Below, in pieces: positions 1-64,000 of a DNA stretch of 64,000 nucleotides; position 1 is the stretch's first letter, and each line of letters starts with the position of its first letter. The stretch comes from a virus. The translations under genes were made by a program, and so were the position numbers. The stretch lies in the IMG/VR virus record IMGVR_UViG_3300037264_007739, positions 9,098 through 73,097 of that record. The stretch is one strand, 5' to 3'. The notes below the pieces were generated by a model. The model did not search any database. It was not told the origin of the DNA and saw only the letters and a list, made by a program, of their open reading frames with translations.

Positions 1-1
1 G

Positions 2-1192
2 CGTGAAGCAGCCGAACATGCGCCGGCCGCACTGAGCTTTCTTCGTGGAGTTCAAGGTCTTATGCCGGGACTCGAACCAAGTGAGCAAGGCAATCTCGAA
101 GCACGAACAAATCAACTTATTAGTCAGGCGATAAGCGCCTCGGCTTACGGTTTCGACCCGAACCAGGCGATCGATATCATGTCGCGTGTCCAGCGGACCC
201 GTGGAGGTTGGCAAGACACACAAGGCATGCGCAACGCACAACATCAGGCGCTCGTCTTAAACCGCGCGTTTAATGTTGCGCCTGAGACCGTAGGCCAGAT
301 CGAGTTCGCACGCCGTCGTGGCGGTGTCGCGAACGCGCACCTTGCTGACCCATTCACGCTGACTGAATCAGCTATCGGTCTTGGCTTCCAAGGACAAGAA
401 GAGGTCAGCGGTTTCCTCCAACGTCAAGCTGGGCTCCAGACGCGTGCGCGTGAACAAGGGACATTCTTCCAACGGGCCCCGTTCGAGAATATGCTCGAGA
501 GTTTCTCGCCCGCAGTTGGACAATTCCAGGCCGAGAGCCTCGCGACAGGTTTCACTGGCGCGCTCCAGAACATTGCGACGCGGGGCATTGCTGGTGCGCC
601 AAGTCCTGAGACGGGGCTCATGATGCTTCAGGCGTTTGGCGGGCTTCAACTCCCGCAGCGCGGTGGTGTGAGTGCCCAGGATATCTGGGATGCACAGCAA
701 CGAATCGAGGCTGGAAAGTTCGATCCACAAGCGTCGATGGCGATGCTAGGTCGGTCCATCCGCGGGGCTGCTGGCGGTTCCGCCGGACTTGCGCGTGTCA
801 TGACACAACAATTTCTTGGTGCGTTTGGAATGTCGCAAGGGCCAGGGAATATCGAATCGCTTTTTGCTGGCGGTCCTGCCGGACCGATGGCGATGGACAT
901 CGCTGGGACAATCACAAGTACAGCCGAAGCTCAGCGTGAGCTCGCAGCGCTCCGTGCGGGTGGAGGACTCGAGGGACGTGCAGGTCTGAAAGGCATTACG
1001 CTGCCACAGGTTGGTATGGCAGCAGGCGTTGAAGCTACTACTATCGCGGCAGGACTTTTGGCGATGCCTGGTTGGCAAGAGCTCAATCAGGCGTGGGCGG
1101 ATATGGCGAAGGAAGTTGCTGAGTGGGCCTCGACTATCGATAGGCTAAAGGCGCTGCCTCCAGCAGTCATCAAGCTCATGTTGGGGCATTGA
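2..1192 (+). CDS. Tape-measure-like tail protein, C-terminal part (frame is open to the window start)
   Basis: Ala/Gly/Gln-rich helical ORF directly upstream of baseplate hub and spike genes; no stop in frame from position 2. Confidence 0.55.
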   Translation, partial: REAAEHAPAALSFLRGVQGLMPGLEPSEQGNLEARTNQLISQAISASAYGFDPNQAIDIMSRVQRTRGGWQDTQGMRNAQHQALVLNRAFNVAPETVGQIEFARRRGGVANAHLADPFTLTESAIGLGFQGQEEVSGFLQRQAGLQTRAREQGTFFQRAPFENMLESFSPAVGQFQAESLATGFTGALQNIATRGIAGAPSPETGLMMLQAFGGLQLPQRGGVSAQDIWDAQQRIEAGKFDPQASMAMLGRSIRGAAGGSAGLARVMTQQFLGAFGMSQGPGNIESLFAGGPAGPMAMDIAGTITSTAEAQRELAALRAGGGLEGRAGLKGITLPQVGMAAGVEATTIAAGLLAMPGWQELNQAWADMAKEVAEWASTIDRLKALPPAVIKLMLGH

Positions 1193-1193
1193 T

Positions 1194-2849
1194 ATGGCAG
1201 AGTCTGTCGCCAAACAAGGCTTCCAGGGTTCTGAGACCTCGCGCGTCGAGATCACTGCGTACAGCTTTGGTGATGAATCTGGTCTCTCGCGCAGCCTGAT
1301 TACGCACAGCGTGGCCTTCTCGGATGCGGGCGTGCCGCCTAGTAATGAGAAGATCGACTTTTTCGGGAAGCGACAGCACACCGAGGGTGTGCCGTATATT
1401 TCGCGCGTCACGACATCGAAGCAGTTGGGCGCGCCAGCAGGCATCTTCTCGTTTGACGTCAAGGCTGATGGAATTGGCCGCGCCGCCGTAGCAGCGCTCG
1501 CTGACGATGATTGGGTCGACATCGTTATGACTCGGCACGGCGTCAAAACGCATGTCATGAGGGGCCAGATCGAGGACATTCGGCTGGAGTCCGTCGTGGT
1601 GGGCACCGGAGCCACTTCTGATATCATCCGCGTCTCTGGACGAGACTTTGGCCGCATCTTCGAGCTCACGCCGATCTGGTTCGATATCCTCACCGATGGC
1701 GCGCTAGGCGCAGGCGCGACGGCACGTGTGCTCGAGGCGAACAACGCGTTCTTCGCGGATCCGGCGACAACGGTAGAGTCGATCCTTTCTGGCTTTCTTC
1801 GCGAGCTCTCGAACGTCGGCCGATCGCATTGGGAGATCCCACCGTCGCTTCAGAACATCCAACGCGTCGGCGGGGGCAGTGCAGCGTTCATCGACAACGC
1901 CTGCTTCTTCGACCGGGACTTCATCAACCACCCGGCACGGGCGAACACGCTTGGACCGTCAATCTACTCGATCAACAACCAGAGCGTTTGGAACTTCGCG
2001 CTTCAGTGGGCGGACCTCGGGCTCTGCGAGATCTACACTGATCTGCTCAGTGCGCCGCTCGATATCTTTTTTCGTAGACGGACGCAAGCGAAGTTCGGTG
2101 TGGCATCAGACCGCATCGATTATGCGCCGCCGAACAACGACCTCGAACATCCTGTCGAGCTCACACCGGCGGATTCGATCATGGCAGTGGTCTTCCGGGA
2201 CAGGCCGTTTCCGTCGGACACGTTCGTCGATCGGAGCAATATCGCGCTCGCAATCGAGAAGTGCGCGTGGTTCAATCGGCTCCCGCTGGTCACCGTTCCT
2301 CGTCAACACGTTACGAGCCGATCAGTTGGACGGAGCGGGGCGGAGCGGCGGAACGCCTTCTTCGTCAAACCGCGTCTCTACCATGAGCTCGCAGGCAGCT
2401 ACTTCGATTTCAACCGTCCGCTCTTTCACACAGATGACATGAAACGGCACGGCATGCGCCGTATGGACACAACCTTCGTCTACACCCGCGGCGCCGACGA
2501 CAAGAACCTCGCGCTCGCGGAGACGTACAAGCGGCGCATGCGCGATTATCACTGCATGAATCACCTATTCTACAACGGGACGATCACGCTTGGTTACGGA
2601 CGTCCTGACATAAGAATCGGGACGCGCTTTCGGATCTCGAACGGAGATGAGGAGACGCAGGAGACCTACTACGTCGAGTCGGTCAACCACGAGTGGACAT
2701 TGCGCGCTGGCCTTCGTACATCACTTGGTGTCTCCCGCGGCTGGGTCGGCTCTGACGGCTCGCTCGTTGATCAGTTGCGTGAGACTGTCCAGAGATACTT
2801 CCGCGTCTCCGAGACAGCCGAGGTCGAGACGGACGAGGCTGTAGCCTAG
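1194..2849 (+). CDS. Baseplate hub / tail protein (gpD/gp27-like)
   Basis: 551 aa; 'IIRVSGRDFGRIF' and C-terminal 'GTITLGYGRPDIRIGTRF...YYVESVNHEW...TSLGVSRG' typical of hub proteins; gene position. Confidence 0.7.
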   Translation: MAESVAKQGFQGSETSRVEITAYSFGDESGLSRSLITHSVAFSDAGVPPSNEKIDFFGKRQHTEGVPYISRVTTSKQLGAPAGIFSFDVKADGIGRAAVAALADDDWVDIVMTRHGVKTHVMRGQIEDIRLESVVVGTGATSDIIRVSGRDFGRIFELTPIWFDILTDGALGAGATARVLEANNAFFADPATTVESILSGFLRELSNVGRSHWEIPPSLQNIQRVGGGSAAFIDNACFFDRDFINHPARANTLGPSIYSINNQSVWNFALQWADLGLCEIYTDLLSAPLDIFFRRRTQAKFGVASDRIDYAPPNNDLEHPVELTPADSIMAVVFRDRPFPSDTFVDRSNIALAIEKCAWFNRLPLVTVPRQHVTSRSVGRSGAERRNAFFVKPRLYHELAGSYFDFNRPLFHTDDMKRHGMRRMDTTFVYTRGADDKNLALAETYKRRMRDYHCMNHLFYNGTITLGYGRPDIRIGTRFRISNGDEETQETYYVESVNHEWTLRAGLRTSLGVSRGWVGSDGSLVDQLRETVQRYFRVSETAEVETDEAVA

Positions 2850-2857
2850 GTGATGAC

Positions 2858-4108
2858 ATGAGCATGAAGGAGTACGTCGCGGCGCTCATGGATCATGGGG
2901 CGGTATCGCAGTCATCAATGCCGAAGATCCCAACAGATTCACTACGCGGTACGGCTGGGTATGCCATCCGCGGTGTCGTGCTGGCGACGTATTTCGTCGA
3001 TGACAAAGAGACGATCCCGAAGCCACAAGACAACGTTCCGACAGGGAATCGAAATCTGACCGGCGAAATCTTCTCGATGCCTGCGGACGGCTCTATTCAT
3101 ATGTACTGCGACGTCCTCGCGTACTCTAGCATAGACGGGGGCCTGGTCTGGAGGATCCCGCGTGCGCTCGTCGCGCAACCTGGTGGCGGGATGCACACAG
3201 GCGCTGTCTGGGTTCCGCGGCCGACGTCATTTCGCATCGACGGACAGATCCTCGACACCGATCGCCTCGGGACGATCAACCCCGGTATTCTGGACGGCGA
3301 CCATGTCCTCGTCGCGTTCATGGACGGTGATGAGCGCCTTCCCGTGATCATCGGGAGCGTGCCGCATCCGAGCAGGGACATCGGCAATGAGGAGAAGGAC
3401 CAGACGAGCACGCTCCCCGAGTCCGTGAAGGCGCAGTCGACACGACTCAAGAAGGCCGACGGGTTCCCGCGGCTGATGAAGCATCACGGCGTCGTGTGGG
3501 GCGTCGACAAGGAGGGGAATTATGTCATCGACGCGACCCGTGCGCATGCGGGCAAGCTCGACGACAAGGGCCGGGAGCCGAAGCTGCCGTCCGACCCGCC
3601 GACGAGCTCGAACGTCGACGTCCCAGCGACGAGCGGGAACATCAACATCAAGCTCCGTGCAGGGCTGAAGGCGCGTATCTCGGTCAGCACCGACCCGGTC
3701 AAGCCGACCGATCCTGCGACGGAGGAGGCGTTCTTCGAGCTCGAGGACGGCATCGTCACGATCGCGGTGAAGAACAAGAGCGCGGGCGGGACGCCGACGC
3801 TGGTCAAGATCGAGGACAACAAGGTCACCGTCACGACGCAGGGTGGTGCTGGCATCGAGGTCACCGACAAGGATGGAAGCGCGAAGCTCAAGATCGGCGA
3901 TGGTGCGATGCACGCGGCGATCGTCGAGCATCTCGAAGCGATGTGGAACCGCTTCATGAACGATAAGCTCACGCCGTGGAACGCGCAGGGCGCAACGGGC
4001 ACGACGTTCGTCACGGCGCTGGGTCCGGCGTTCCAGGTCGTGCCGCTCATGCCTGAGCCGTGGGACCCGACGATCAACTCTACGAAGGTCTCCCTCCCTG
4101 ACGGCTAG
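2858..4108 (+). CDS. Baseplate central spike (gpV/gp45-like)
   Basis: 'GDHVLVAFMDGDERLPVIIG' OB-fold signature followed by a beta-strand-rich C-terminus. Confidence 0.7.
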   Translation: MSMKEYVAALMDHGAVSQSSMPKIPTDSLRGTAGYAIRGVVLATYFVDDKETIPKPQDNVPTGNRNLTGEIFSMPADGSIHMYCDVLAYSSIDGGLVWRIPRALVAQPGGGMHTGAVWVPRPTSFRIDGQILDTDRLGTINPGILDGDHVLVAFMDGDERLPVIIGSVPHPSRDIGNEEKDQTSTLPESVKAQSTRLKKADGFPRLMKHHGVVWGVDKEGNYVIDATRAHAGKLDDKGREPKLPSDPPTSSNVDVPATSGNINIKLRAGLKARISVSTDPVKPTDPATEEAFFELEDGIVTIAVKNKSAGGTPTLVKIEDNKVTVTTQGGAGIEVTDKDGSAKLKIGDGAMHAAIVEHLEAMWNRFMNDKLTPWNAQGATGTTFVTALGPAFQVVPLMPEPWDPTINSTKVSLPDG

Positions 4109-4115
4109 ATGACAT

Positions 4116-4667
4116 ATGCCGCTGAACGTTCTCACGTTGACGACCGAGCTCCGGAAGTTCATGGACCCAGACTTCGACGAGTTCGTCACGAACGACCCAG
4201 CGTTGTTCGACCCGGTCGTCTTTCCAACACCAGAAGAACGGCTCGATGAGCATGCGCGGCTTCTCAAGGACGACGCGCAGTACAAGGCGGATCGGTGGAC
4301 GACGGCTTATGACACATATATGGGCGAGATCTCACTGCCGGCGCCGCCGACGAACGCCCCTGCGGCAGAGGTGGCACTCAACGGCGCGCTCGTCGCGTAC
4401 TTCAGCATCCCGAAGACGCCGATCAGCGTCGTCACCGATCTCATCGGTTTCGTCGCGACGTTCCCGATCTACACCAACCTGCTCGTGTTCCCGAACTTTG
4501 CGCCTGGGACGCCGCCGATCCCGCCAACGGGGCCGATCCTCCCCCCGCTTGCCGTGCCAGCACCAGCAGCAGGCATTTGCGCGGCCATGGCAGCCGCCTT
4601 TCACGCCTGGACCATCACGAACAACCGAGTTCCTATTCCACCCGGCCCGCCCGTCCCGTTCGCATGA
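4116..4667 (+). CDS. Pro-rich hypothetical virion protein following the spike
   Basis: 183-aa ORF tightly packed in the structural operon. Confidence 0.55.
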   Translation: MPLNVLTLTTELRKFMDPDFDEFVTNDPALFDPVVFPTPEERLDEHARLLKDDAQYKADRWTTAYDTYMGEISLPAPPTNAPAAEVALNGALVAYFSIPKTPISVVTDLIGFVATFPIYTNLLVFPNFAPGTPPIPPTGPILPPLAVPAPAAGICAAMAAAFHAWTITNNRVPIPPGPPVPFA

Positions 4668-15682: not shown

Positions 15683-15724
15683 CCATGTAACATGATGAGA
15701 TGGATGACATAAAGGATATAATTT

Positions 15725-16087
15725 ATGGAAGGCTTCGATTTCGGTCCATTGGTAGAGCAGCTCGTCACATGGCAGAACGGGCTCATCGTCGTCGCGTGCG
15801 GCGCGGCGATGGAGGCGTTCAAGCGCGGTCCTGGGACGCGCAAGATCGCCGAGAGCCGATGGGGCCAGGTGCTCGCGTACTACGCGCCTGTCGCGTGGGC
15901 GTGGCTCGCGCTCTTTCTACCGATCGGGCTCGCGCGTGACGGCGCCGGCGTCGGCGAAAGACTCTTGCTCGGCGTCGTGCTCGGGACAGTCACCGACTCG
16001 GCCTACGATTGGACGGTGAAGGCGCTCAGGAAGTTCCTCGGCGCGGGCGTGGCTGAGAAGTCGTCGTCGCTGTCGCTGCCGAAGTGA
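15725..16087 (+). CDS. Holin-like membrane protein
   Basis: 120 aa with about 3 hydrophobic segments, directly after the tail fiber. Confidence 0.55.
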   Translation: MEGFDFGPLVEQLVTWQNGLIVVACGAAMEAFKRGPGTRKIAESRWGQVLAYYAPVAWAWLALFLPIGLARDGAGVGERLLLGVVLGTVTDSAYDWTVKALRKFLGAGVAEKSSSLSLPK

Positions 16088-16090
16088 GCC

Positions 16091-16444
16091 ATGGTCGTCC
16101 TATCGTTTCTGAAAAGGTACACATGGCTCGTCCTCTTTGCGATTGCAGTCGTGCTCGCAACGATCATCGCTGTCCTGTCGCGACGGAAACCAACTGACGG
16201 CCTCACAAGAGGGGCGGTGATCAAGGCCGAGCTCGCCGGCATTCGCGCCGAGGGCGAGCTCGAACGCCGGCTCGCCGCGAAGGGGGCGGAGGCCGCGAAG
16301 GCAGAGGTGGAGCGCGCCTATGAATCCGAGAAGCACGCGATGGCCGAGAGCGAGCGGAAGGAAGCCGAGGAGCTCAAGGCCGACCCGGTCAAACTCGCTG
16401 GTTTTCTTGCTAGGGCTGGCGCTCGCCGTCGCCATCGCTCCTGA
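16091..16444 (+). CDS. i-spanin (Rz)-like protein
   Basis: N-terminal TM followed by a charged coiled coil. Confidence 0.45.
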   Translation: MVVLSFLKRYTWLVLFAIAVVLATIIAVLSRRKPTDGLTRGAVIKAELAGIRAEGELERRLAAKGAEAAKAEVERAYESEKHAMAESERKEAEELKADPVKLAGFLARAGARRRHRS

Positions 16445-16874
16445 GCTCGCGCTCGCGGAATGCGACCCCAACGACCCGACGGCGTGCTCGACGCCGATCA
16501 ACAAGGGCCAGGCGGCGCCGTACAGCGGCCAGCTCCTCACACCTGTCCTTGCGATCAGGCTCGGTCAGGACGCCGAGCACTGCGACGACCGCCTCGATCT
16601 CGAGCTCGCTCATACGAGCTCGCTGGCGCGCATCAGGCTCGACTACGAGAAAGCGCTCCGGGTGGTCGACGTTCGGCAGCTCACCCGCGAGCGTGACGCC
16701 TACGAACGCGACAGGGACTTCTGGAAGGGCGAGGCGGGCCGCAAGGTCGAGCCACCTCATTGGACAGCTAGCCCGTACTTCGTCGTCCCTGTGGCCGTGC
16801 TCGCGACGCTGGGCGCGGTGTGGCTCGGCATCGAGGTCGTGAAGGCACGAGAGAAAGTTACGACCGTGCCTTGA
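16320..16874 (+). CDS. Overlapping exported protein, possible spanin partner
   Basis: Overlaps the previous gene in another frame; signal-like hydrophobic stretch, Cys residues, coiled coil, C-terminal TM. Confidence 0.45.
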   Translation: MNPRSTRWPRASGRKPRSSRPTRSNSLVFLLGLALAVAIAPELALAECDPNDPTACSTPINKGQAAPYSGQLLTPVLAIRLGQDAEHCDDRLDLELAHTSSLARIRLDYEKALRVVDVRQLTRERDAYERDRDFWKGEAGRKVEPPHWTASPYFVVPVAVLATLGAVWLGIEVVKAREKVTTVP

Positions 16875-16899
16875 CACCGTGCTCGAGCAGCGTTATGAC
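16871..16899 (+). promoter_or_regulatory. Sigma70-type promoter driving the non-coding region
   Basis: TTGACA (16871) - 17 nt - TATGAC (16894). Confidence 0.7.
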
Positions 16900-16903
16900 C
16901 CCG

Positions 16904-17197: not shown

Positions 17198-17210
17198 GGG
17201 ACTCTCAGTT

Positions 17211-17849
17211 CTACCCAGCCCTCGCGGCAGCGAGAATCCGGTCCCACGCGAACGCTGGCCCGGGGTCGGTCTTGCGCGTCGGGTCCACGTTCTCGTGGCC
17301 GGTGAATCGGCCGTCGGGCGGGCCGGACACTACACCGGCGTCTCGGAGCTGCGGGAACACGGCGACGAGCGTCTTCGTGAGCGCCTCGAGCGTCACGAGC
17401 TGTTCCTCGGCGTACGCGTCCCATTGATCGCCGTTCGGCATGACGATCGCGTTCCCCTTGTGCTCGACGCCCTTGTACGTGATGAGCTTGTCGCCCTTGA
17501 GCGCGAGCTTGCCCCAGTTCTCGATCTCGATGCCGATCGATCGGTTGTTCACCTGGCCCTTCGTGCGCCACTTCGAGGTCTGCCCGCCCGCGTGCCACGT
17601 GCGATCGGTGAGCGGCGCGAGCTGCCACGGCTCGCCGTTCTTCTTGATGATGAAGTGCGCCGACGCCGAGGAATCCTTCGAGGTGAGCCATCGGAGCGAG
17701 CCATCGAAGCCGCCTGCGGTGTAGTGGTAGACGACGAGCTCGATGGGCTGAATGCGGCTGGCCTGAAACGCCTTCGAGTAACGGTTCGGTGTCAGGCGTC
17801 GAAACGCCTCGGGCACCACCCATCCATCATTTGTCGGCGCGATGATCAC
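17211..17849 (-). CDS. N-acetylmuramoyl-L-alanine amidase (Amidase_2, probable endolysin)
   Basis: 'VVYHYTA', 'SAHF', 'WHAG', 'NNRSIGIE', 'GHENV...RKTDPGPAF.W'. Confidence 0.92.
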   Translation of the reverse strand: MIIAPTNDGWVVPEAFRRLTPNRYSKAFQASRIQPIELVVYHYTAGGFDGSLRWLTSKDSSASAHFIIKKNGEPWQLAPLTDRTWHAGGQTSKWRTKGQVNNRSIGIEIENWGKLALKGDKLITYKGVEHKGNAIVMPNGDQWDAYAEEQLVTLEALTKTLVAVFPQLRDAGVVSGPPDGRFTGHENVDPTRKTDPGPAFAWDRILAAARAG

Positions 17850-18682
17850 GACGTCTCTTCGTCCTCGTCGTCCTCGAAGACCGCTCTGTCATCTTCGATG
17901 GGCTCCTCGCCGTCAATGGGCTCCGCACCCGTCCCGATAGAAAGGACGCGCTCCGAGGCTGGTGCTGGCGGGGTGACATATCGCCCTTCGATTATGACTG
18001 GTGCCGGCCCTGGTGTGCCTGGCGGTGTGACCGGCGCCGGCGCGCCCAGGGTCGGGACCGTCGAGTCGAGCTGTGAGCCTTCGATGGGCATACGCAGTGC
18101 GCCGGCGATCGTCAGACGCATGCTGTCGCGCCGGTGGCGAAGGATCTCCTTGGCAGCAAGCTGGAGCTCCTCGGATGAGGCACCGACATCCTCGGGGCGG
18201 AGCTGCTTTTGCTCGCCCTGGCCGGGCATGAGCTCAGCACCGACCGCCGTGGCGATACGGTCCCTGTGCTCTGTGGCCTCGAGCAGGATCTTGGCAACGC
18301 CCTCCCAGCTCTTGGGCATCACCATCTCGTCGGTGAGCTTCTCGAGCGCGAGCGACCGAATCGTCTCGAGATCGGCGAGGTCGCGCTGGCGAAGGCGACA
18401 GAGCTCGGTCCCGAGGCGCTCCTTGGCCCGGCTCTTCCACGCCGAGAAGAAGGCCGATCGCCGCTCGACCCATTGATCCTCTTTGGACCAGCGCTCGAGC
18501 GTCTTCTGGGTGACCTTCGCGAAGCGCGGGTCCTTCGACATCTCCTCGAGCGTCGGCGTCTCGTGGGTCATGTAGTAGATGCCGGCCTCGGCCCGCAGGC
18601 GTGGGTCGCCGCGAGCAGGTCCCTCGAGCTTAGTCGTCGGGGCCAGCGGCAAGGAGGTCTCGGTAGCGTTCGGCGCGCTCAT
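17846..18682 (-). CDS. HTH protein, possible terminase small subunit
   Basis: 'TLEEMS...VTQKTLERWSKEDQWVERR' HTH followed by helical region, as in TerS-like proteins. Confidence 0.45.
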   Translation of the reverse strand: MSAPNATETSLPLAPTTKLEGPARGDPRLRAEAGIYYMTHETPTLEEMSKDPRFAKVTQKTLERWSKEDQWVERRSAFFSAWKSRAKERLGTELCRLRQRDLADLETIRSLALEKLTDEMVMPKSWEGVAKILLEATEHRDRIATAVGAELMPGQGEQKQLRPEDVGASSEELQLAAKEILRHRRDSMRLTIAGALRMPIEGSQLDSTVPTLGAPAPVTPPGTPGPAPVIIEGRYVTPPAPASERVLSIGTGAEPIDGEEPIEDDRAVFEDDEDEETS

Positions 18683-18875: not shown

Positions 18876-18888
18876 GACATCTCCCTTC

Positions 18889-19128
18889 TTACATGAAGCC
18901 TCGGTGCTTCCTCGTTCGCCCAAGGACTGCACCGTCAACCTTCTGGCCATTCCCCATGATCGCGCCGACCTTCCATTGCGCGTCGGCGCGCAAGACCTGA
19001 CCGGAGGGAATTTCGACCCGGGCGTGCTCGACGCCGCACGCGCACGTCTGCTGGTCGCGCTCGGCCATCGAGACGAGGCGGTTCTCCTCGAGCCCGCAGT
19101 TCGGGCACCTGTACTCGTACATGGGCAT
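18889..19128 (-). CDS. FmdB-family zinc-ribbon protein
   Basis: 'MPMYEYRCPNCG...TCACG'. Confidence 0.8.
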   Translation of the reverse strand: MPMYEYRCPNCGLEENRLVSMAERDQQTCACGVEHARVEIPSGQVLRADAQWKVGAIMGNGQKVDGAVLGRTRKHRGFM

Positions 19129-20235: not shown

Positions 20236-20236
20236 G

Positions 20237-21027: not shown

Positions 21028-21064
21028 TGCGATTCCTCCTCGCGGGTGAAGACGCTCTTTCCTA

Positions 21065-21294: not shown

Positions 21295-21317
21295 TGTGAC
21301 ATATCAAGACCGTCGCC

Positions 21318-22440: not shown

Positions 22441-22473
22441 TTATGTCATAACAACTTATGACATAAACGTCAA
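22441..22473 (-). promoter_or_regulatory. Leaderless recombinase promoter overlapped by a double-palindrome operator
   Basis: TTGACG-17-TATGAC (minus strand); TTATGTCATAA-CAAC-TTATGACATAA at 22441-22466. Confidence 0.75.
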
Positions 22474-27929: not shown

Positions 27930-27988
27930 GTTTTCTTCTCCATGAATAGTTCGACGTAGCCATGATCCAGAACATCGATCCTTGTCAT
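27926..27988 (-). pseudogene. thyX: thyX 5' remnant (MTRIDVLDHGYVELFMEKKT*)
   Basis: GAGGG RBS; IDVLDHGYVEL resembles the conserved N-terminus of flavin-dependent thymidylate synthase; rest of gene absent. Confidence 0.55.
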
Positions 27989-27997
27989 GTCATCCCT

Positions 27998-28273
27998 CTA
28001 TTCAAAATCACCGCAACTCAGAAAAAAGCCGCAGCCTTCAGTTTTGCAAGTCAGCTTGCATTTGTGTTTGGTGAGCACCTCTCCGCAGTTGGGACACCGA
28101 GCTTGCTCTCCGAAGATCTGCTCGCGCCAGGCAAGGAGCTTTTTCGCGAACTCGGCGCGCTCGCCTTCAAGGCGAAGATGCTTCGGGGTCTTCGGGTCGA
28201 GCGCGACCCGAATGAGCATTGTCGGCGTCGAAGCAAGCCGCGTCTCGAAGTCGTCTGTGGGAACGGGCTTCAC
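27998..28273 (-). CDS. Zn-finger hypothetical protein
   Basis: 'CPNCG...KCKLTC...CGFFLSC'. Confidence 0.55.
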   Translation of the reverse strand: MKPVPTDDFETRLASTPTMLIRVALDPKTPKHLRLEGERAEFAKKLLAWREQIFGEQARCPNCGEVLTKHKCKLTCKTEGCGFFLSCGDFE

Positions 28274-29208
28274 GATCGAGCTTCCTCCTTCGAGAGCTGG
28301 CGCGAGAGCTTCCGCTTCACCGAGGTGATCGCTAGCTTCAGGACGTCGAAGTCGGCGAGCGCCTTCGTGTCGCCGTTCATGATGAAGTCTATGAGCCCGA
28401 TCGCGACCTGCACTTCCTTCCCACGCTTGTCGTAGAACTCGAGCTCTTCCTTGAGGAGCTTGAGCTCGCGGCGCCCCCAGGTCTTCTTGCGCTCCGGCGG
28501 GGTGTAGTCGTGCCCGTTCTGCTGGGCCTTCACGACGTCTTTCACCTCGTGGTTCTTGGTCGCGCTGTTCTCTTTGAGCTTGACGAGAACGGCCTCTTGC
28601 TCTTCGCGCGGGACTTCGGCGAGTGCGTCGATCGAACCGATGGGCACTTCACCGGAATCGATCGCCTTCTGCGCCGCCGCCGACAGGTTGAGGAAGCGCA
28701 GGAGACTTGCGATGCGCTTCGGGCTCATGCCGCACGCCTTGGCGATCTCCTCGTTCGAGCGCCCGAGCTTGTTCACGGCGCGCACCTTCCACGCGAGCGA
28801 CTTCACCGACTCGTTCTTTCGGTGCGCGTTCTCGGCGATCGCGATGAGGAGCATGTCGGCGTCGTCGCCGTGGACGAACGTCACCGGGATCTTCGCCGCC
28901 TCGGTGCCCTTGCCACGACGCGTGTTCGCCTCGATCAGGTGTCGCGTGCGCCGGCGTCCAGCGATGACCTGAACGATGAGCTTGCCACCCGAGACGCCGT
29001 TGTCGCGGCAGACGATCGGCTGGAGCACGCCGCGCTCCATGATGTCGAGGACGAGCGCTTCGTCGAGCGGGTCCTCGGCGCGAGGATCGTAGAGCACGTG
29101 CGTCTTGTCCGTAATGATCGTGAGCGCCTCCGGGTCGACGTACGTGATCGTCCCTCGGCTTGCGTCCACCCCTGCATCCTTCAACTTGTCGGCTATCGAC
29201 TTGGCCAA
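28270..29208 (-). CDS. ParB/Srx-domain protein
   Basis: 'GVLQPIV', 'IAGRRR', 'AIAENAHR', HTH 'NEEIAKACGMS'. Confidence 0.85.
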   Translation of the reverse strand: MAKSIADKLKDAGVDASRGTITYVDPEALTIITDKTHVLYDPRAEDPLDEALVLDIMERGVLQPIVCRDNGVSGGKLIVQVIAGRRRTRHLIEANTRRGKGTEAAKIPVTFVHGDDADMLLIAIAENAHRKNESVKSLAWKVRAVNKLGRSNEEIAKACGMSPKRIASLLRFLNLSAAAQKAIDSGEVPIGSIDALAEVPREEQEAVLVKLKENSATKNHEVKDVVKAQQNGHDYTPPERKKTWGRRELKLLKEELEFYDKRGKEVQVAIGLIDFIMNGDTKALADFDVLKLAITSVKRKLSRQLSKEEARS

Positions 29209-29221
29209 GATGTCATCCCTC

Positions 29222-44175: not shown

Positions 44176-46035
44176 ATGGCAACGTCGCCCCCCATGACGC
44201 GAAAGAAGCCCGAGCTGACAGTCGTCGACGGCGAGAGAGACGCTGCCGACGACGCGCAGCCGAGGCCGGTCAAACGGCCGGGCCAAAAGATCGGCGACTT
44301 CACCGTCCCATACGGGTACGAGATCTGGAGCGACGGCCTGTACACCATCTCGACGCCGACGCCCGACGACCCATCCGAGCCAAGTCTGAAGGACTGCCCA
44401 AGTCCGGCGCAGCGGACGAATCTTCGCCGGATATGTCATGAGCCAGTGTGGATCCGTCGCTTCGGACGCGTGCTCGACTCGGACGAGCAACTTCTCGAGC
44501 TCGCCTACAAGGATGCGCTCACCGGCGAGATCGTTGCCACCTGGGTCGACCGCCTCCAGATCGCCTCGAAGCAGGCGATCACAGCCCTCTCCAGGAACGG
44601 TGTCCCCGTCACCGAGGGGACCTCGATCTCCCTCATGCACTTTCTTGACGCAGCGCTCCATCTGAACGGCGGCAAGCTCGAGATCCACCAGATCGTCCGG
44701 CGAACGGGCGCCCACGAGATCAAAGAGGGCATAGGCTGGATGATCGGCGACCGCTGGATCGGACCGATCAACACCCGTGTCGTTCCCGACCCGCGGAGCC
44801 GGGCCGACTTCTCGGACGGCTTCACTGTCTCGGGCGACGAGGATCAGTGGTTCGCGACCTTCAAGCGCGTCGCCGAGATCGGCCCGGTCGCCCGTTGGCT
44901 CATCTACTCGGCCTTCGCCGCGCCGCTCCTGCGCTTCGTCGACGAGCGGACCTTCGTCATTCACCACTGGGGCGACTCCGGCACCGGCAAGACCGCCCTC
45001 GCGAAGTTCGCGATGAGCGCCTGGGGCGACCCGAATCGCCTGATGATGACATTCAACCGGACCAAGCTCTCCTTCACCGAGACGTTCAACTACCTCGACG
45101 ACGTCCCAGTCCTCTTCGATGAGCTTCAGGTCGCGAACCGAGATGACATATTGGCGGCGATCTACTCCCTCGTGCTCGAGCAGCACCGGATGCGCGCCGG
45201 CCAGTCTGGCGGTCTCCAGGCCCGAGGCGGTGGCTGGCACACGGTCGTGCGGACCACCGGCGAGGAGGAGATCGCCGGCCGTGACGGCAAGGTCGCCGAC
45301 CTTGGTGGCGCCGCCAACCGCACGATCCAGATTGGCGTGCCGGTGCTCGTGCCCGAGCAGGCCCGCGAGGTCCACAAGTGGCTCGCGAAGAGGCACTACG
45401 GCTGGGGCGCGATGCGCTTCCTCTCTCAGCTCTCGACCATCGCCGGCCTCCCAGACGGGCAAGGGAAGGCGCTCCTGACCGAGCGCTTCACCCAGATCCG
45501 TGACGAGGTCACGGCGCGCTCGGTCTCGACGCCGACGCTCCACGCCCGCGTTGGGCAGCTCGCCGTCGTCGCCCTCGCGCAGTACCTCGCCGATCGCTGG
45601 TTCTTCTCAGCGAGCCCAGACGTCGCGCTCGAGTGCGCCATCGCCGACGCGGTCGTAGTCGCCGCCGCCCTCTCCACGGGCGAGAACCGCACGCCGCTCG
45701 CCGACGAGGCTCTTCAGCTTCTCCACGACCACTTCGTCGGGCACAGGCACCTCTGGTTCGACCTCGCCAACGAGGCCGAGGAGAAAACCGTCAGTGAGGG
45801 GCGCCAGAAGCAGATGTTCGGCGTCCTCGCCCCAGGCGAGATCTGGCTCATCCAGCGTGAAGCCAACAACCTGCTGAAAAAGCACAGCTTTCCTCCGCGC
45901 CGTGTCTGGGCCGACCTTCGGGACCGCGGCCGGCTGCTCCTGCCGCCGAGCGCCAAAGGCACATTCGGTAGCCCGCGCAGACATGGTAGCCTCTACGCGA
46001 AGGTCTATGTCATTGATCGCGCTGGCCTTTTCTAA
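44176..46035 (+). CDS. DUF927 / Cch-like replicative helicase
   Basis: 'HHWGDSGTGKT', 'SAWG.P', 'FDE', 'TTGE', 'HYG.G...F'. Confidence 0.85.
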   Translation: MATSPPMTRKKPELTVVDGERDAADDAQPRPVKRPGQKIGDFTVPYGYEIWSDGLYTISTPTPDDPSEPSLKDCPSPAQRTNLRRICHEPVWIRRFGRVLDSDEQLLELAYKDALTGEIVATWVDRLQIASKQAITALSRNGVPVTEGTSISLMHFLDAALHLNGGKLEIHQIVRRTGAHEIKEGIGWMIGDRWIGPINTRVVPDPRSRADFSDGFTVSGDEDQWFATFKRVAEIGPVARWLIYSAFAAPLLRFVDERTFVIHHWGDSGTGKTALAKFAMSAWGDPNRLMMTFNRTKLSFTETFNYLDDVPVLFDELQVANRDDILAAIYSLVLEQHRMRAGQSGGLQARGGGWHTVVRTTGEEEIAGRDGKVADLGGAANRTIQIGVPVLVPEQAREVHKWLAKRHYGWGAMRFLSQLSTIAGLPDGQGKALLTERFTQIRDEVTARSVSTPTLHARVGQLAVVALAQYLADRWFFSASPDVALECAIADAVVVAAALSTGENRTPLADEALQLLHDHFVGHRHLWFDLANEAEEKTVSEGRQKQMFGVLAPGEIWLIQREANNLLKKHSFPPRRVWADLRDRGRLLLPPSAKGTFGSPRRHGSLYAKVYVIDRAGLF

Positions 46036-46039
46036 AGGC

Positions 46040-46300: not shown

Positions 46301-46301
46301 A

Positions 46302-46330
46302 TTGACGATGTCGTCGACGTTATGTATTAC
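46302..46330 (+). promoter_or_regulatory. Leaderless sigma70-type promoter
   Basis: TTGACG-17-TATTAC, ATG at 46336. Confidence 0.65.
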
Positions 46331-46335
46331 GTGTC

Positions 46336-47025: not shown

Positions 47026-48527
47026 GCGGCAACGGCATCATTTGGGACCGTTATCAACGAGCCGTCTTCGACGACCTCGCCCAGGGCCAGGGGCACACCG
47101 TGGTCCTGGCCCGCGCGGGGTCGGGGAAAACGACGACCATCATCGCCGGCCTCGACCATCTCCCCTCCTGGGGCACGGTGCTTCTCACCGCGTTCAACAA
47201 GGGCGTCGAGCGCGAGCTCAAGGCTCGGGCTCCGAGCCATGTTCGTGTGCGAACGCTTCACGGCCTCGGGTACAGCGCTCTTCGCCAGCATCACGGCAGT
47301 GTCGAGATCGACGAGCACAAGGGGCGGAACATCGCGTACCAGGTGCTCAACGACTACGCGAACCAGTACCGTGTGCGGATCGACATCGGCGAGCTCGCCC
47401 CGAAGCTCCGGCAGCTCTCCTCCCTGGCGAAGAACTGCCTCGCTCGTGATCTCGCCGACGTCGAGCGCATCGCCTACGCCTTCGGGCTCGATAGCTACGA
47501 CTTCCCCGCGCCGTTTGCTGCACAGCTCGTGGCTGAATGTCTCAAGCGCGCCACGGCTGTCACAAAGCGCATCGACTTCGATGACATGATTTATCTCCCC
47601 GCGAAGCTCGGCGCGAATCCAAGCCCCTTCGACTTCGTGCTCGTCGACGAGCTTCAGGATGTCAATGCGGCGCAGCTCAATCTTGCTGCAAGTGCGTGCA
47701 AGGGCAGGTTTATTGGTGTTGGTGACATAAATCAGGCGATTTATTTATTCCGTGGGGCAGATGCGAACGCGATCCCTCGCACTATCCAAGAGCTCAATGC
47801 CAAGGTGCTTCCGCTCAGTGTGACATATCGGTGCCCGCTCGCCGTCATCGCGTACGTCCAGTCTAGGGTCTCAGGCATCGAAGACCTTGAGCCACGTCCA
47901 GGCGCGCCCCAGGGCGTCGTCGCCGAGCGCCGTCTCGAGGAGCTCCTCGGGCCGTTCGGTGCAAGACCTGGAGACTTCATTCTTTCCAGGCTAAACGCGC
48001 CGCTCATGCCGATCTGCATGCACTTCCTTCGACATGGCATACCGGCCGTTGTCGCTGGACGTGACATGGGGCGAAACCTCGCCGACCTCGTGAAGAAGGC
48101 AGGTGCGTACACCACACGGGATCTTCTTGGGTGGCTCGACGACCACCAACGGAAGGAGTACGAGCGCCTTCTCCAGGCCGACAAGCTCGAGCGATATGTC
48201 CAGGTCCAGGACCAGATCGACGCCGTCCGCGCCCTCACCGATGGCACGAAGCTCGCCGCCGAGGTCACCGCCGTGATCGAGACCATCTTCTCGGACGACC
48301 GACCAACCGGAGCGGTGGTCTGCTCGACGGTGCACAAGGCAAAGGGGCTCGAGCGGGACCGGGTCTGGCTCCTCGACAACACCTTCTTCCTTTGGGACGG
48401 GATCGAGGAGGAGAACCTTTATTATGTCGCTTGCACAAGATCTAGATCTGACCTGTATCTCGTGCCAGATGGCGTTCCGACCGCCAGTAGCATCCGCGGC
48501 CTGATGGCGAATCACGACGTCTCTTGA
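47022..48527 (+). CDS. UvrD/Rep-family SF1 helicase
   Basis: 'ARAGSGKTT', 'VDELQD', 'VGD..QAIY.FRGA', 'STVHKAKGLE', 'YVACTRS'. Confidence 0.93.
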   Translation: MSGNGIIWDRYQRAVFDDLAQGQGHTVVLARAGSGKTTTIIAGLDHLPSWGTVLLTAFNKGVERELKARAPSHVRVRTLHGLGYSALRQHHGSVEIDEHKGRNIAYQVLNDYANQYRVRIDIGELAPKLRQLSSLAKNCLARDLADVERIAYAFGLDSYDFPAPFAAQLVAECLKRATAVTKRIDFDDMIYLPAKLGANPSPFDFVLVDELQDVNAAQLNLAASACKGRFIGVGDINQAIYLFRGADANAIPRTIQELNAKVLPLSVTYRCPLAVIAYVQSRVSGIEDLEPRPGAPQGVVAERRLEELLGPFGARPGDFILSRLNAPLMPICMHFLRHGIPAVVAGRDMGRNLADLVKKAGAYTTRDLLGWLDDHQRKEYERLLQADKLERYVQVQDQIDAVRALTDGTKLAAEVTAVIETIFSDDRPTGAVVCSTVHKAKGLERDRVWLLDNTFFLWDGIEEENLYYVACTRSRSDLYLVPDGVPTASSIRGLMANHDVS

Positions 48528-48581
48528 CCAGATTGTTTCCAGAATCGCCAGACATGCGAGGTTAGGACACGACATATTGTC

Positions 48582-48610
48582 TTGCGTCCACTTCCAGAAA
48601 CCGGTACAAC
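48582..48610 (+). promoter_or_regulatory. Leaderless sigma70-type promoter of the XRE regulator
   Basis: TTGCGT-17-TACAAC, ATG at 48617; repeated TTCCAGAA nearby. Confidence 0.5.
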
Positions 48611-48616: not shown

Positions 48617-48949
48617 ATGGCAAGTAACGGCGACGCCACTGTGGTCGCGATCGATGCGGGCGGTGATGTAGAGAACGGCGAGCTCCCGGCGTCGGTCGCG
48701 CGACTTGCAACGGCGATCCGTAAAGCGCGAGAGAAGCGTGGATGGTCACAGGCGGTGCTCGCCGAGACCGCGCACGTTTCGCACGACATCGTGCACCGGC
48801 TCGAGACCGGAAAGAGCGATGTGCTCTTCGGCGTTGCAGTCGACATCGCGCGCGTGCTGAACGTGTCGCTCGATGATGTCGCGTACACGCCGCGCGTGTC
48901 GAAGCGTGTTCGAGAAGCGGCGGAAGCCGCAGGGCAGGAGGAAGCATGA
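48617..48949 (+). CDS. XRE-family HTH transcriptional regulator
   Basis: 'IRKAREKRGWSQAVLAE...VHRLETG...IARVLNVSLD'. Confidence 0.9.
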   Translation: MASNGDATVVAIDAGGDVENGELPASVARLATAIRKAREKRGWSQAVLAETAHVSHDIVHRLETGKSDVLFGVAVDIARVLNVSLDDVAYTPRVSKRVREAAEAAGQEEA

Positions 48950-49386: not shown

Positions 49387-49653
49387 GTGCTTCTTCAACA
49401 ACTCATCGGAAAGTCAGTCAATTCAGGAAATGGACACGCACCGCGCGTCCAGAAAGCGTCCAGGAAGAAGACGCAGAGTCCCAAGGTCAAGAAGTCGGAA
49501 GATACCGACTCCCGCTGCGTCCAGGTCAAGTCGGCTGTCCGCCGAACCGAGAAGCGGGCTTTCGAGGAGCTGGCGATCAAGCGCGAGACGACCTTGTCAG
49601 ACCTCATCAGGGACTTCTTGTTGGAGGAGGCGAAGAGCGAAGGGCTGTTGTGA
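49387..49653 (+). CDS. Ribbon-helix-helix DNA-binding protein
   Basis: 'VQVKS...EKRAFEELA...TTLSDLIRD'. Confidence 0.6.
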   Translation: MLLQQLIGKSVNSGNGHAPRVQKASRKKTQSPKVKKSEDTDSRCVQVKSAVRRTEKRAFEELAIKRETTLSDLIRDFLLEEAKSEGLL

Positions 49654-50010: not shown

Positions 50011-50787
50011 TCACACGAGTCCGGCACAGCGGGCACGTAGGTCGTCGAGCGTCCCGTCGTTCACGAGGACGTGGTCGAACAGCACCTCGTCGATCCCGTC
50101 CTGCTCGGTCTCCGAGAGGTGCGCCCCGGCCATGCCGGTTAGCCCCGCCTCTGGGCGCTTGATCTTCCAGACCTCGCCGCCGGCCTCCCTGATCGCCAGC
50201 ACCTCGTTGCGAAAGCGGACGTCTGAAAAGATGACGAGCTCTGTCCGCTCGATGACATAAGATGACGCGAAGTGCTCGACGTCGGCAGGACGCCGAATCC
50301 GATGCCCGTTCGTGAGCCCCTGCGCACGACGCACACCGAGGTCGATCCACGTGTTCGCGTACCGCTCGCGCGCCCATTCTGTGCCGAGCGTTTGGAGCGC
50401 CTCTCGCGGTGTCAGGTGCGAGCAGACCTCGATGCTGAGTGGTCTCCCGCAGCGCCGGCACCGAGGATCGTCATCAGGCATCGGACCGGGCACGTGCCGC
50501 CTCGGGTAGCGCTCGTCCGGCTTGTTGCGCTCGGCTGATGGTCCCCAGAGTTGCATGTACGAGAAGTCGTAGACCTCGCGGCAGATGACCTTGAGCGGAT
50601 CGGCGAGCGCCATCTGCACCGCCCGTGCCTTGAGCGCGGTCTTCTTGCGCTCCTTCGCGGCGGTCTCGTGGACGAGCACCTCGATATCGACCCACTGCCC
50701 GTCCATCCACACGGGGTGGACCGGCGCGATCATCGCCGCAACAGAATCCTTCCCGGAGCCCGCTTTTCCCAAAAGGCCGATGATCAT
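50011..50787 (-). CDS. Deoxynucleoside monophosphate kinase (T4 gp1-like)
   Basis: 'IIGLLGKAGSGKD', 'ADPLK', 'TPREALQTLGTEW.R', 'DVRF.NE', 'H.SE', 'NDGTL'. Confidence 0.9.
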   Translation of the reverse strand: MIIGLLGKAGSGKDSVAAMIAPVHPVWMDGQWVDIEVLVHETAAKERKKTALKARAVQMALADPLKVICREVYDFSYMQLWGPSAERNKPDERYPRRHVPGPMPDDDPRCRRCGRPLSIEVCSHLTPREALQTLGTEWARERYANTWIDLGVRRAQGLTNGHRIRRPADVEHFASSYVIERTELVIFSDVRFRNEVLAIREAGGEVWKIKRPEAGLTGMAGAHLSETEQDGIDEVLFDHVLVNDGTLDDLRARCAGLV

Positions 50788-50800
50788 CGTCCCTCCTACC

Positions 50801-50983
50801 TTAGAACTCTGGTCGCGAGGCGATCTCGAGAATCGTCGCGTGCCCAACGATGCGACTACCCTCTTGCATCGGGACCACAGAGCCGATCGTTACGTGCCCC
50901 CAGAACTCCACCGTGAGCGGCTCAATGTGTATTTCTCCTTCATCACCCGGACGAAGCTCGGCTACTCCATCAAGCAGAACGGG
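50801..50983 (-). pseudogene. Start-less fragment resembling EF-Tu domain III-like proteins
   Basis: Frame reads VLLDGVAELRPGDEG...VPMQEGSRIVGHATILEI*; upstream stop, no start before this segment. Confidence 0.4.
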
Positions 50984-56496: not shown

Positions 56497-56559
56497 CCCC
56501 CATTTTTAGTGGGTGGATGTCTGGCTCTCCAAACATCCGCCCACTAACTACGATTTAAT

Positions 56560-62750: not shown

Positions 62751-62752
62751 AG

Positions 62753-63730
62753 CTACTCCTTGCCGCCGTCCTCGACAGCGAGCGACGCCACCGTGAGCCC
62801 TGCGCGCACGCGCTCGAGGCGCTCACGGATCGTGTCCAAGCGACAATCCAAGAGCTCCTCGTACGTCGAGAGCTTGCCTCCAAGTTTCGTGAGCGAGCGC
62901 AGCTTCGAGCCGATGGCGCGCTTGCCCATCGCTGGCGGCAGCGGTGATGTAGCGGTCGCGGTCCCTTCCTCGATCGCCGCTTGCTGAGCCAGCGCGTCGG
63001 CGTGGTCGTTCAGTGCTTCCTCCATGCCCTCGGCCGCGGACTCGGCCTCGCGGGTGATCGCATCGAGGATGGCCTCGATGGCCTCGTCCGACTTCATGGC
63101 GGGGATGAAGAACACGCGCGACCCGCTCGCGGCGTGCACCGCCCGCGACCACTTGCGGAACGACTCGAGCGTCTGCCGAGGCACGAAGTAGAAGCCGCCA
63201 CGGTCGCGCGGCGACACCGCGTCGTGCTGCTCGGCCAGCCGAACCAACCACGCCGAGATGTCAGTCGCTGCATACGACGCCTTGTGCCTCGTGTACGCGG
63301 CCCCGATCTCGGCCTCGAGCGGGTGCTCCGCAGGCTCGAACATGAGCCGGTTGTCCGCGTCTCGACGCACGACGATCTGAAGTGCGTACGACGCCGGCTT
63401 GCCGGAATCGTCGAGGTGCTCGTCGACGATCGCCCAGCCACCGCCTTCGACGGGCCGCACGAGCCGACGCTTCGCCCGCTGCTCGTCCACGGCGCGGTGC
63501 AGCGCCACCTCCGCCGAGGGCAGGTCGGGCAGCTTCCCGGCGTCGAGACCCGTTTGCGTCACGTGATGCTCGAGCGGCGCGGCCTCGGTCGACGCGCACC
63601 GAAAGTGACAGATCGCTCCGGCCTCGCGCGCCGCATCCGCATCGACCGCGATGAAGTCCGAGTCCTTGAGTGGATCCTTGATGCTCTGCATGGCCTGTCC
63701 GTTGTTGCTGTTCTGCACGATCGAAAGCAT
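62753..63730 (-). CDS. Conserved-looking phage protein (DUF6744-like)
   Basis: 'A.S.R..GGFYFVP' motif, C-terminal coiled coil. Confidence 0.5.
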   Translation of the reverse strand: MLSIVQNSNNGQAMQSIKDPLKDSDFIAVDADAAREAGAICHFRCASTEAAPLEHHVTQTGLDAGKLPDLPSAEVALHRAVDEQRAKRRLVRPVEGGGWAIVDEHLDDSGKPASYALQIVVRRDADNRLMFEPAEHPLEAEIGAAYTRHKASYAATDISAWLVRLAEQHDAVSPRDRGGFYFVPRQTLESFRKWSRAVHAASGSRVFFIPAMKSDEAIEAILDAITREAESAAEGMEEALNDHADALAQQAAIEEGTATATSPLPPAMGKRAIGSKLRSLTKLGGKLSTYEELLDCRLDTIRERLERVRAGLTVASLAVEDGGKE

Positions 63731-63784
63731 GGATGTCCCTTCTGCCATATGCTGGCATTTATGTCAAGTCAGTTTTGTCTTGTG

Positions 63785-64000
63785 TTACCCGTCGATAGAG
63801 CAGATCAGCTCATCACGACGGCGTTCAAGCGCGGCGATCTCAGCCATCACCTTGGCGAGCTCGGCGCCGAGCCCGTGGCGCGTCGGCCTGGTCGGCCTCG
63901 GCTTCGGTCCGATCGGCGTCGCGATCACCTGCGGGGGTCGCGAGCGCCCAGCCTTGACGACCTTCTTGGCCGCCGAGGCCACGCGTTTCTCGCCCGCAGG
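63785..64000 (-). CDS. Hypothetical protein, 3' part (may start outside the window)
   Basis: Basic segment ending in a short coiled coil. Confidence 0.4.
   Translation of the reverse strand, partial: PAGEKRVASAAKKVVKAGRSRPPQVIATPIGPKPRPTRPTRHGLGAELAKVMAEIAALERRRDELICSIDG

Follow-up and report, generated by a model that had tools for sequence, protein, structure and literature searches.

Tn3 resolvase binds its promoter-carrying res site and represses both genes (PMC7157771). The stoperators of Cluster A mycobacteriophages (L5 gp71 type) are more than 20 asymmetric 13-mers in promoters and short gaps, whose orientation follows transcription and which are bound by a monomeric two-domain repressor (PMC9283540). 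The KorB operator (OB) of plasmid RK2 is a palindrome bound by a dimer (PMC11790492). These systems were compared with a dispersed DNA word, ATGACATA(A/T), in a 64,000-nucleotide stretch of phage DNA (the window), which corresponds to bases 9098–73097 of the linear 73,097-bp IMG/VR virus record IMGVR_UViG_3300037264_007739. Two inverted copies of the word formed a perfect 26-bp dyad directly upstream of a gene for a small serine recombinase, and further copies were scattered singly over the record. The enrichment of ATGACATA is real and specific, and ATGACATA(A/T) is probably a protein-binding signal.

The dyad resembled the res site of Tn3 and gamma-delta (TnpR) in its arms of about 12 bp, its short asymmetric centre and its position directly upstream of the recombinase gene, over putative promoter-like elements. 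Tn3 res has three subsites and no scattered copies, whereas the phage has one dyad, one solitary half-site 39 bp away and scattered arm words. Furthermore, the phage recombinase is of the mini large-serine-integrase type, in contrast to the HTH_7 resolvases and invertases. The hix and gix sites of the Hin and Gin invertases may provide a further comparison; scattering of the arm word over the genome is not described for any of these systems. Tn3 resolvase at res is the nearest working analogy for the dyad. Like the stoperators, the phage word is short and asymmetric, and occurs as single sites dispersed in promoter-like sequences and at gene boundaries. It differs in its length of about nine informative bases and in its number, since the 73 kb contain 11 copies if ATGACATA is counted and 17 if TGACATA is, half of them in genes, and the general domain scans gave only a generic 110-aa XRE protein, with no Cluster-A-type repressor identified. 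The analogy to stoperators, which an earlier note on the window had drawn, also failed at the orientation rule: the 11 copies of ATGACATA were 5 sense and 6 antisense to transcription, and the 17 copies of TGACATA were 9 sense and 8 antisense. As in the KorB/RK2 system, a ParB-family protein is encoded on a mobile element together with a short word at distant places, some far from promoters. The phage word is asymmetric, however, and its strongest site is located at the recombinase gene rather than at the ParB gene.

The ten ATGACATA/TATGTCAT positions, the six positions of TGACATA alone and the 23 ATGWCAT cores that the earlier note had listed in the window were all recovered exactly in a recount, whereas the G+C content, given there as about 64%, was measured as 61.9%. 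Dinucleotide shuffles of the window contained ATGACATA with a mean of 0.22 and a maximum of 3 copies, and none of 100 reached ten; for the 23 cores the expectation was 4.27, and again none of 100 shuffles reached the observed number. The Markov expectations at orders 3 and 4 were 0.51 and 1.08 for ATGACATA (10 observed), 0.33 and 0.74 for TGACATAA (9 observed), and 1.8 and 3.2 for TATGTCA (16 observed). Each of these words ranked first or second among all words of its length at Markov orders 3–4, and the enrichment also held over orders 1–4. Among the 8-mers with six A/T letters in the 73-kb record, ATGACATA (11 copies) and TGACATAA (9 copies) were the top two. Matches of at least 9/11 to TTATGWCATAA numbered 14, compared with 2.0 ± 1.3 and a maximum of 6 in 100 order-3 simulations.

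The coding sequences were examined by synonymous-codon shuffling (500 runs) over 78 called genes, with the first three codons of each gene excluded. The gene coordinates were chosen from open reading frames (ORFs) on the basis of G+C content at third codon positions (GC3) by the analyst, and are approximate. The in-gene copies were 6 for ATGACATA (0.69 in the shuffles), 10 for TGACATA (2.32) and 16 for ATGWCAT (6.43), and none of the 500 runs reached the observed number for any of the three, in shuffles that mix codons over whole genes and leave local composition uncontrolled. The enrichment noticed earlier survived both the codon-preserving shuffles and the Markov backgrounds. The rare codons pointed out at the in-gene copies were also found: ATA, which accounts for 3.7% of Ile codons, was used in 4 sites, and AGA (4.6%) and TTG (9%) occurred as well. 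The shuffle and codon evidence supports the earlier proposal of a DNA-level signal under selection.

When the 27 ATGWCAT cores of the record were oriented by the central base, their flanks were asymmetric, with a preceding G in 20/27, a following A or G in 21/27 and then A in 14/27. Single-substitution scanning gave 6 copies of ATGACATAA (0.10 expected), 4 of ATGACATAT (0.16 expected) and 7 of ATGACATGA (0.61 expected). Positions 2, 3, 5 and 6 of ATGACATAA (T, G, C and A) tolerated no substitution, and position 7 (T) had one C-variant copy. All seven copies of ATGACATGA were sense; in three, the second ATG was a start codon 5 nt past a ribosome site (GAGGGATGAC-ATG), and the other four encoded in-frame Asp-Met or similar. 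The GAGGGATGAC context recurred at five gene starts, and in 7–8 of the 27 cores a ribosome site preceded the core and a start codon followed it. About one in three ATGWCAT cores, those of the ATGACATGA class and of the GAGGGATGAC ribosome-site contexts, is therefore translation or coding context and not an operator. The motif that had been pooled in the earlier note was thus divided into two classes: the dispersed ATGACATA(A/T) word stands, and the ATGACATGA class is set aside as start-codon and Asp-Met context.

Alignment of the 17 TGACATA sites revealed no second conserved element at a fixed distance. Together with the lack of transcriptional bias, this indicates that ATGACATA(A/T) is a word at the DNA level. 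The dispersed copies had been described as odd palindromes, but they stand alone, as asymmetric ATGACATA(A/T) words that lack a partner arm. The mirror form ATGTCATAA was not enriched outside the dyad (with the dyad masked, ATGTCATA 1 against 0.53 expected and TGTCATAA 2 against 0.35), and both points count against the suggested likeness to parS. Two other interpretations of the word were rejected. A promoter element was contradicted by the absence of a fixed-distance element and of sense bias, and by the base before TGACA, which was A and not T in 11 of the 17 sites. A Met-Thr-stop mini-ORF (ATG-ACA-TAA/TGA), which would resemble the bar minigenes of lambda, was contradicted by the sense orientation of ATGACATA in just 5 of 11 copies.

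The dyad upstream of the recombinase gene consisted of two inverted copies of ATGACATAA with the TAA ends outward and 8 bp between them, and scored 22/22 at a spacing of 4. It was located 3–28 nt upstream of the recombinase ATG. The two full copies that had been reported at this promoter are indeed located over it, but they are the two arms of one 26-bp dyad and not two operators. The dyad overlapped the spacer and the −10-like hexamer of the arrangement TTGACG-17-TATGAC-6-ATG, which was read by eye; the consensus scan for promoters did not call it, as the second hexamer has no final T. A promoter at this position would give a leaderless or nearly leaderless message. The third copy of ATGACATAA, at 22497, overlapped the 3' end of a minus-strand ORF of 66 aa, over its final codons and stop (..F M S S stop, including the rare codons TCA and TCT). 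The features are listed in Table 1.

Table 1. Recombinase gene, dyad, and copies of the word and its variants, in window coordinates
Feature	Position	Strand	Details
Mini serine recombinase, 255 aa	21671..22438	-	Pfam Resolvase (1e-31) and beginning of Recombinase domain
Perfect 26-bp dyad	22441..22466	.	TTATGTCATAA-CAAC-TTATGACATAA; 11-nt arms, non-palindromic centre
TTGACG, −35-like hexamer	22468..22473	-	By-eye reading; followed by 17 nt, TATGAC, 6 nt, ATG
Third copy, ATGACATAA	22497..22505	+	39 bp from right arm of dyad
Solitary ATGACATAA	15704..15712	+	42-bp gap before gene 15725..16087
Solitary ATGACATA	4109..4116	+	7-nt gap between stop of 2858..4108 and ATG of 4116..4667
Solitary ATGACATAA	3521..3528	-	Within baseplate-hub-like gene 2858..4108
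TGACATA	21297..21303	+	2 bases from minus-strand TTGACA; just downstream of hairpin 21314–21352
ATGACATA	44432..44439	-	Within DUF927 gene; ATA TGT CAT, three minor codons
ATGACATA	45143..45150	+	Within DUF927 gene; GAT GAC ATA TTG
ATGACATA	46006..46013	-	30 nt before stop of DUF927 gene
TGACATAA	47723..47730	+	Within UvrD-like helicase gene; GGT GAC ATA AAT
TGACATA	47821..47827	+	Within UvrD-like helicase gene
ATGACATAA	50252..50260	+	Antisense in minus-strand gene 50011..50847 (dNMP-kinase-like)
TTGACATAAAT	63760..63766	-	Intergenic, both neighbours on minus strand; 11 nt before first ATG of 62753..63748
TGACATAA	2606..2612	+	Within gene 1194..2849; CCT GAC ATA AGA, three of four codons rare (CCT, ATA, AGA)
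TGACATA	17974..17980	+	Within minus-strand gene 17846..18682
ATGACAT core only	29210..29216	-	Spacer between GGAGGG ribosome site and TTG start of ParB-like gene; translation-context class
GAGGGATGACATGAC	27987..27993	-	Ribosome-site/start cassette, same as at record position 7069 (window −2028); translation-context class

In the recombinase, a catalytic domain and a long helix E are followed by only the first of the DNA-binding domains known from large serine integrases (the 'recombinase' domain), and the zinc-ribbon or coiled-coil part is absent. In PHROGs, it aligned with the integrase family phrog_95 (5e-46) over profile positions 84–295 of 651. The AlphaFold model (predicted local distance difference test score, pLDDT, 87.8) contained the catalytic domain, the long helix and a small domain of a hairpin plus helices; its top fold matches were large serine integrases, with about 250 columns aligned, and the closest solved structure by sequence was the catalytic domain of the Gin invertase. 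The model and the domain content agree with a 'mini' large-serine-recombinase type. A protein search gave at least 1534 homologues at E ≤1e-10 among the 8000 candidates scored. The best 120 were 217–336 aa long (all but one 217–269 aa) with 42–62% identity, which indicates that the short length of the recombinase is native. This large family of serine recombinases of about 220–250 aa (typically about 235 aa; metagenome loci L024–L103 and viral loci L104–L183) is apparently undescribed.

Eighty metagenome loci of the family (L024–L103) were compared, and 69 of them extended for 150 nt or more upstream of the gene. A dyad, defined as 11-nt arms that differ by no more than one mismatch, are separated by 0–8 nt and lie within 200 nt upstream, was present in 21 of these 69, compared with 56 of 1156 random control windows from the same loci. 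Many of the family dyads were of the 12-2-12 form and began 30–200 nt before the gene. Several different homologues had a GTACACACACCG-NN-CGGTGTGTGTAC type in common (for example, GTACACACACCG-TC-CGGTGTGTGTAC), and others had arm sequences of their own. This GTACACAC-type (GTACAC-type) family site was absent from the phage, where GTACACACACCG with up to three mismatches gave 38 matches against 37.6 expected. TGACATA occurred 7 times upstream of 143 homologous genes (1.7 expected), yet 4 of the 7 were TTGACATA −35 boxes. The simplest reading would be that each recombinase of the family has its own site beside its gene and that 22441–22466 is the one for the phage protein; the dyad is most likely the site of the recombinase itself, with an autoregulatory role.

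One distant, syntenic relative, L025, had ATGACATAA at the equivalent place. It is a 4.8-kb metagenome contig with 49% G+C, and its recombinase was 50% identical to that of the phage. The L025 protein has part of the C-terminal insertion of the phage recombinase, which was absent from the other 75 metagenome homologues compared and was also found in the three closest database proteins (P0002–P0004, 54–62% identity). In addition, L025 encodes homologues of the zinc-ribbon protein and of a 278-aa protein, both of which are encoded downstream of the recombinase gene in the phage. The region upstream of the L025 recombinase gene contained TAATCATGTCATGACATAATAAC between a TTGACA hexamer and a ribosome site (..TCATGTCATGACATAAT..), which consists of ATGACATAA and an inverted ATGACATGA overlapping head to head. 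Because unconstrained intergenic DNA would lose a 9-mer at such divergence, the comparison indicates that ATGACATAA is under constraint at the position upstream of the recombinase gene.

With the dyad masked, the arm words remained in excess over the 73-kb record: 7 copies of TTATGTCA/TGACATAA were found against 0.36 expected, and 9 of TATGTCAT/ATGACATA against 0.54, in a single pre-specified test. The copies along the genome were 12 on the plus and 5 on the minus strand, interspersed. Seven cores were located inside the DUF927 and UvrD-like genes; a 15-kb block (29210–44433) contained none, and only two (60526 and 63760) were found in the approximately 13.7 kb after 50252. The 15704 copy lay inside the spacer of the only sigma-70-like match in 15000–23500. 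The placement of copies at gene starts proposed in the earlier note held for several boundaries, including the recombinase promoter, and the copy at 21297 was indeed beside a TTGACA, two bases away and on the minus strand; the excess at boundaries was modest, however, and the core at the ParB start belongs to the translation context. A role as replication iterons was rejected, as the seven cores in 44433–47821 were spaced 100–900 bp apart and the A+T-rich origin candidate at 46036–46335 had none.

In the mechanism proposed here, ATGACATA(A/T) would be a protein-recognition half-site, and the two inverted half-sites 8 bp apart would form the recombinase's own binding site, used as a crossover site. 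Occupancy of the dyad would switch off the recombinase gene in the manner of Tn3 resolvase at res, because the dyad overlaps the promoter-like sequence and nearly touches the start codon. The approximately nine further exact copies (15 with TGACATA) would be solitary half-sites kept by selection at gene boundaries and in genes. On the most economical view, the same DNA-binding specificity would act at these sites, through either the C-terminal domain of the recombinase or a second protein that shares the site, with weak repression or anchoring as the outcome. That the specificity of the recombinase is used at the dyad and at all solitary copies is tentatively proposed, with somewhat less than an even chance of being correct. 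It seems unlikely that the mini recombinase itself uses the roughly 15 solitary half-sites, whether in a genome-wide network for repression or anchoring or as secondary target sites, at gene boundaries, of programmed rearrangement or module exchange. What the sequences show is the enrichment of the word, its asymmetry, the dyad, the recurrence of upstream dyads in the family and the retention of the word in L025; the identity of the binder, and binding at the solitary copies at all, we infer. As a set, the solitary half-sites are selected but so far unexplained.

Several observations weigh against this mechanism. Serine recombinases are not known to use solitary half-sites. No second dyad of at least 17/22 was found at spacings of 0–8 in the 73-kb record (best other score, 16/22), so that all remaining copies are solitary; the record is about 45% complete (CheckV), and a site that serves multimer resolution would find its partner in its own counterpart on another copy of the genome. 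Unlike the arms in the relatives, those of the dyad are small odd palindromes of 11 bp in themselves, which would suit a small dimeric repressor. The half-sites overlap in L025 and are 8 bp apart in the phage, a difference of 10 bp that argues against one fixed geometry of a recombinase dimer and keeps a separate small regulator in play. The boundary preference was modest: 9 of 17 TGACATA copies were intergenic or no more than 30 nt from the end of a called gene, a zone that covers 21% of the record and 31% of A+T-matched 7-mer occurrences (p = 0.05). Eight other viral loci of 5–21 kb, in each of which a distinct, strong dyad precedes the recombinase gene, contained 18 arm words beyond the dyad where 20.4 were expected. 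The recombinase family does not, therefore, habitually disperse its arm words, and the dispersal is peculiar to this phage. Finally, 16 of the 19 in-gene cores shared the frame xAT-GWC-ATx, the cheapest encoding, which indicates that coding constraints shape the placement.

Some of these points would fit an operator of a separate phage regulator, with the recombinase gene as its tightest target and the other copies as a small regulon, an explanation that is possible but on the whole doubtful. The XRE protein (48617..48949), a weak ribbon-helix-helix (RHH) protein (49387..49653) and the FmdB-type zinc-ribbon protein (18889..19128) are candidates for such a regulator, as is some small protein that escaped recognition. 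The window encodes both XRE and RHH proteins, and the zinc-ribbon protein is one of only three proteins in common with L025, whose compact palindrome ATGTCA-TGACAT is operator-like rather than like a crossover site. The 11-bp odd-palindromic arms suit a small dimer, the dyad covers the −10-like hexamer and the spacer, where a repressor would be placed, and copies are found in the promoter-like spacer at 15704 and beside TTGACA at 21297. No copy is located upstream of the XRE or RHH genes, however, and the imperfect palindrome found upstream of the XRE gene, around GACATATTGTC, is a different one. The solitary copies lack both symmetry and a partner, and the upstream dyads follow the recombinase family whatever the neighbouring genes are. 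It is very unlikely that the ParB-like protein (28270..29208) uses the copies for loading or as operators, like the KorB operators of RK2 or the scattered centromere sites of phage-plasmids. This protein has an HTH_ParB domain (1.9e-08) and a ParB_N match (1.1e-05) just under the Pfam cut-off, an ATGACAT core is present at the start of its gene, and KorB acts from dispersed palindromic operators over up to 1.5 kb (PMC11790492). The dispersed word, in contrast, is an asymmetric 9-mer and not a palindrome of 13–16 bp, the copy at the ParB gene is a 7-bp core within a ribosome-site spacer also found at other genes, the scanned neighbouring genes included no recognisable ParA-type gene, and the strongest site belongs to a different gene at a distance of 6 kb.

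It is also quite unlikely that the word has no dedicated function and is the sum of ribosome-site and start contexts, favoured codon strings (GAT GAC ATx and xAT GTC ATx), local A+T-rich patches and one recombinase dyad. The cores between ribosome sites and start codons, the ATGACATGA copies explained by start and coding contexts, the single frame of most in-gene cores, the rough gene calls and the lack of local-composition control in the shuffles all fit such an origin. It does not account for the in-gene excess of ATGACATA over the codon shuffles, the use of the rarest codons at in-gene sites, the sharp base specificity in the substitution scan or the absence of the word from the most A+T-rich stretch of the window (46036–46335). 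The least probable of the explanations weighed is a target of DNA modification or end protection, through the 886-aa Dam-like fusion protein (30140..32800), or a Chi-like signal. The Dam domain (PF05869, 7e-27) and a short, strand-independent word would agree with it, whereas the word is not palindromic, the interspersed strands show no genome polarity and the clustering at one promoter is left unexplained. To our knowledge, methylation targets are not normally enriched 10–20-fold, which also counts against modification.

Searches outside the phage were made for the double 11-mer of the dyad. A scan of 185,579 genomes gave 18 matches, mostly in A+T-rich Clostridia and several of them plain hairpins; they were rejected as related sites and attributed to chance, as the three inspected loci had no recombinase, and the other 15 were judged by site sequence. 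The pattern had zero matches in viral contigs, and a literature text search for four motif words gave no bacterial or phage binding site in the part of the matches examined. The phage DNA was present in one sequencing run only, probably that of the source sample, and there as contigs; the sides of the listed joints were at most 21 nt long and none was at the sites. Contigs cannot reveal rare rearrangements, so the run data are neither for nor against recombination. Apart from these results, a contig of a Clostridia metagenome-assembled genome (L008) carried five TTATGWCATAA-like repeats at 4420–4570, in an A+T-rich gap upstream of genes resembling those of aromatic-amino-acid biosynthesis. This array is unrelated to the phage and may be a regulatory array of its own.

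The window encodes myovirus-type baseplate and tail proteins, an endolysin, nucleotide-metabolism enzymes, and the ParB-like, XRE and small serine recombinase proteins. Its replication block consists of a family A DNA polymerase fused to a uracil-DNA-glycosylase (UDG) domain, an SNF2-type helicase, a PD-(D/E)XK nuclease, a DUF927 primase/helicase-like protein and a UvrD-like helicase. The polymerase fusion (34733–38611, minus strand) is a protein of 1292 aa with a domain of the uracil-DNA-glycosylase superfamily at residues 400–552 and the polymerase domain at residues 988–1287. The Dam-like protein, encoded on the minus strand, has its phage Dam-type N6-adenine methyltransferase domain in the first 140 residues, and the other approximately 740 residues matched no Pfam family. 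An HNH_3 homing-endonuclease-like gene (41412–42029, minus strand) between the nuclease and helicase genes had a GC3 of 0.65, compared with 0.82–0.83 in its neighbours, and is probably a recent insertion. Neither IMG/VR nor a set of 50,697 phage records contained a close relative of the phage; against viral contigs, the matches of the baseplate, recombinase, DUF927 and ParB proteins had at most 33% identity, where there were any. An Rfam scan of the window gave no match.

Several further sequence features were observed. Directly after the DUF927 gene, 300 bp of non-coding DNA (46036–46335) had 38–47% G+C, compared with 62% overall, and contained (TAG)7 at 46180–46200, three GATCTA words, a TATATATA run and zero copies of the motif; it is a candidate replication origin or strong promoter region. 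An imperfect palindrome, GGACACGACATATTGTCTTGCGTCC, at 48565–48589, 28 nt upstream of the XRE start, holds GACATAT, one base off the dispersed word, and may be the operator of the XRE protein itself. Hairpins in gaps between minus-strand genes, at 56506–56547 (19-nt arms, 89% paired) and 21314–21352 (17-nt arms, 94% paired), are likely terminators; the latter was located just upstream, along transcription, of the TGACATA at 21297. Other words were over-represented as well: AGGGCCAGG had 7 copies (838, 16504, 17552, 47083, 58350, 59598 and 59616) against 0.27 expected, with none of 100 shuffles reaching 7, CCTGGCCC had 12 copies against 1.9 expected, and TCTCCGAGA had 8 against 0.8.

If the solitary copies are unbound, the phage is a caution that the appearance of a regulon can arise from a single recombinase site in combination with coding and start-codon contexts. 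If they are bound, the cis-regulatory code of an uncultured orphan myovirus-like phage would be compact and readable from its sequence alone, and a widespread family of mini serine recombinases, whose members have upstream dyads of their own, would be tied to gene control. The sites and proteins of the family co-vary, and could serve as a natural collection of small orthogonal recombinase/site pairs. Should the half-site network exist, a site-specific recombinase would double as a global DNA-binding regulator of the virus.

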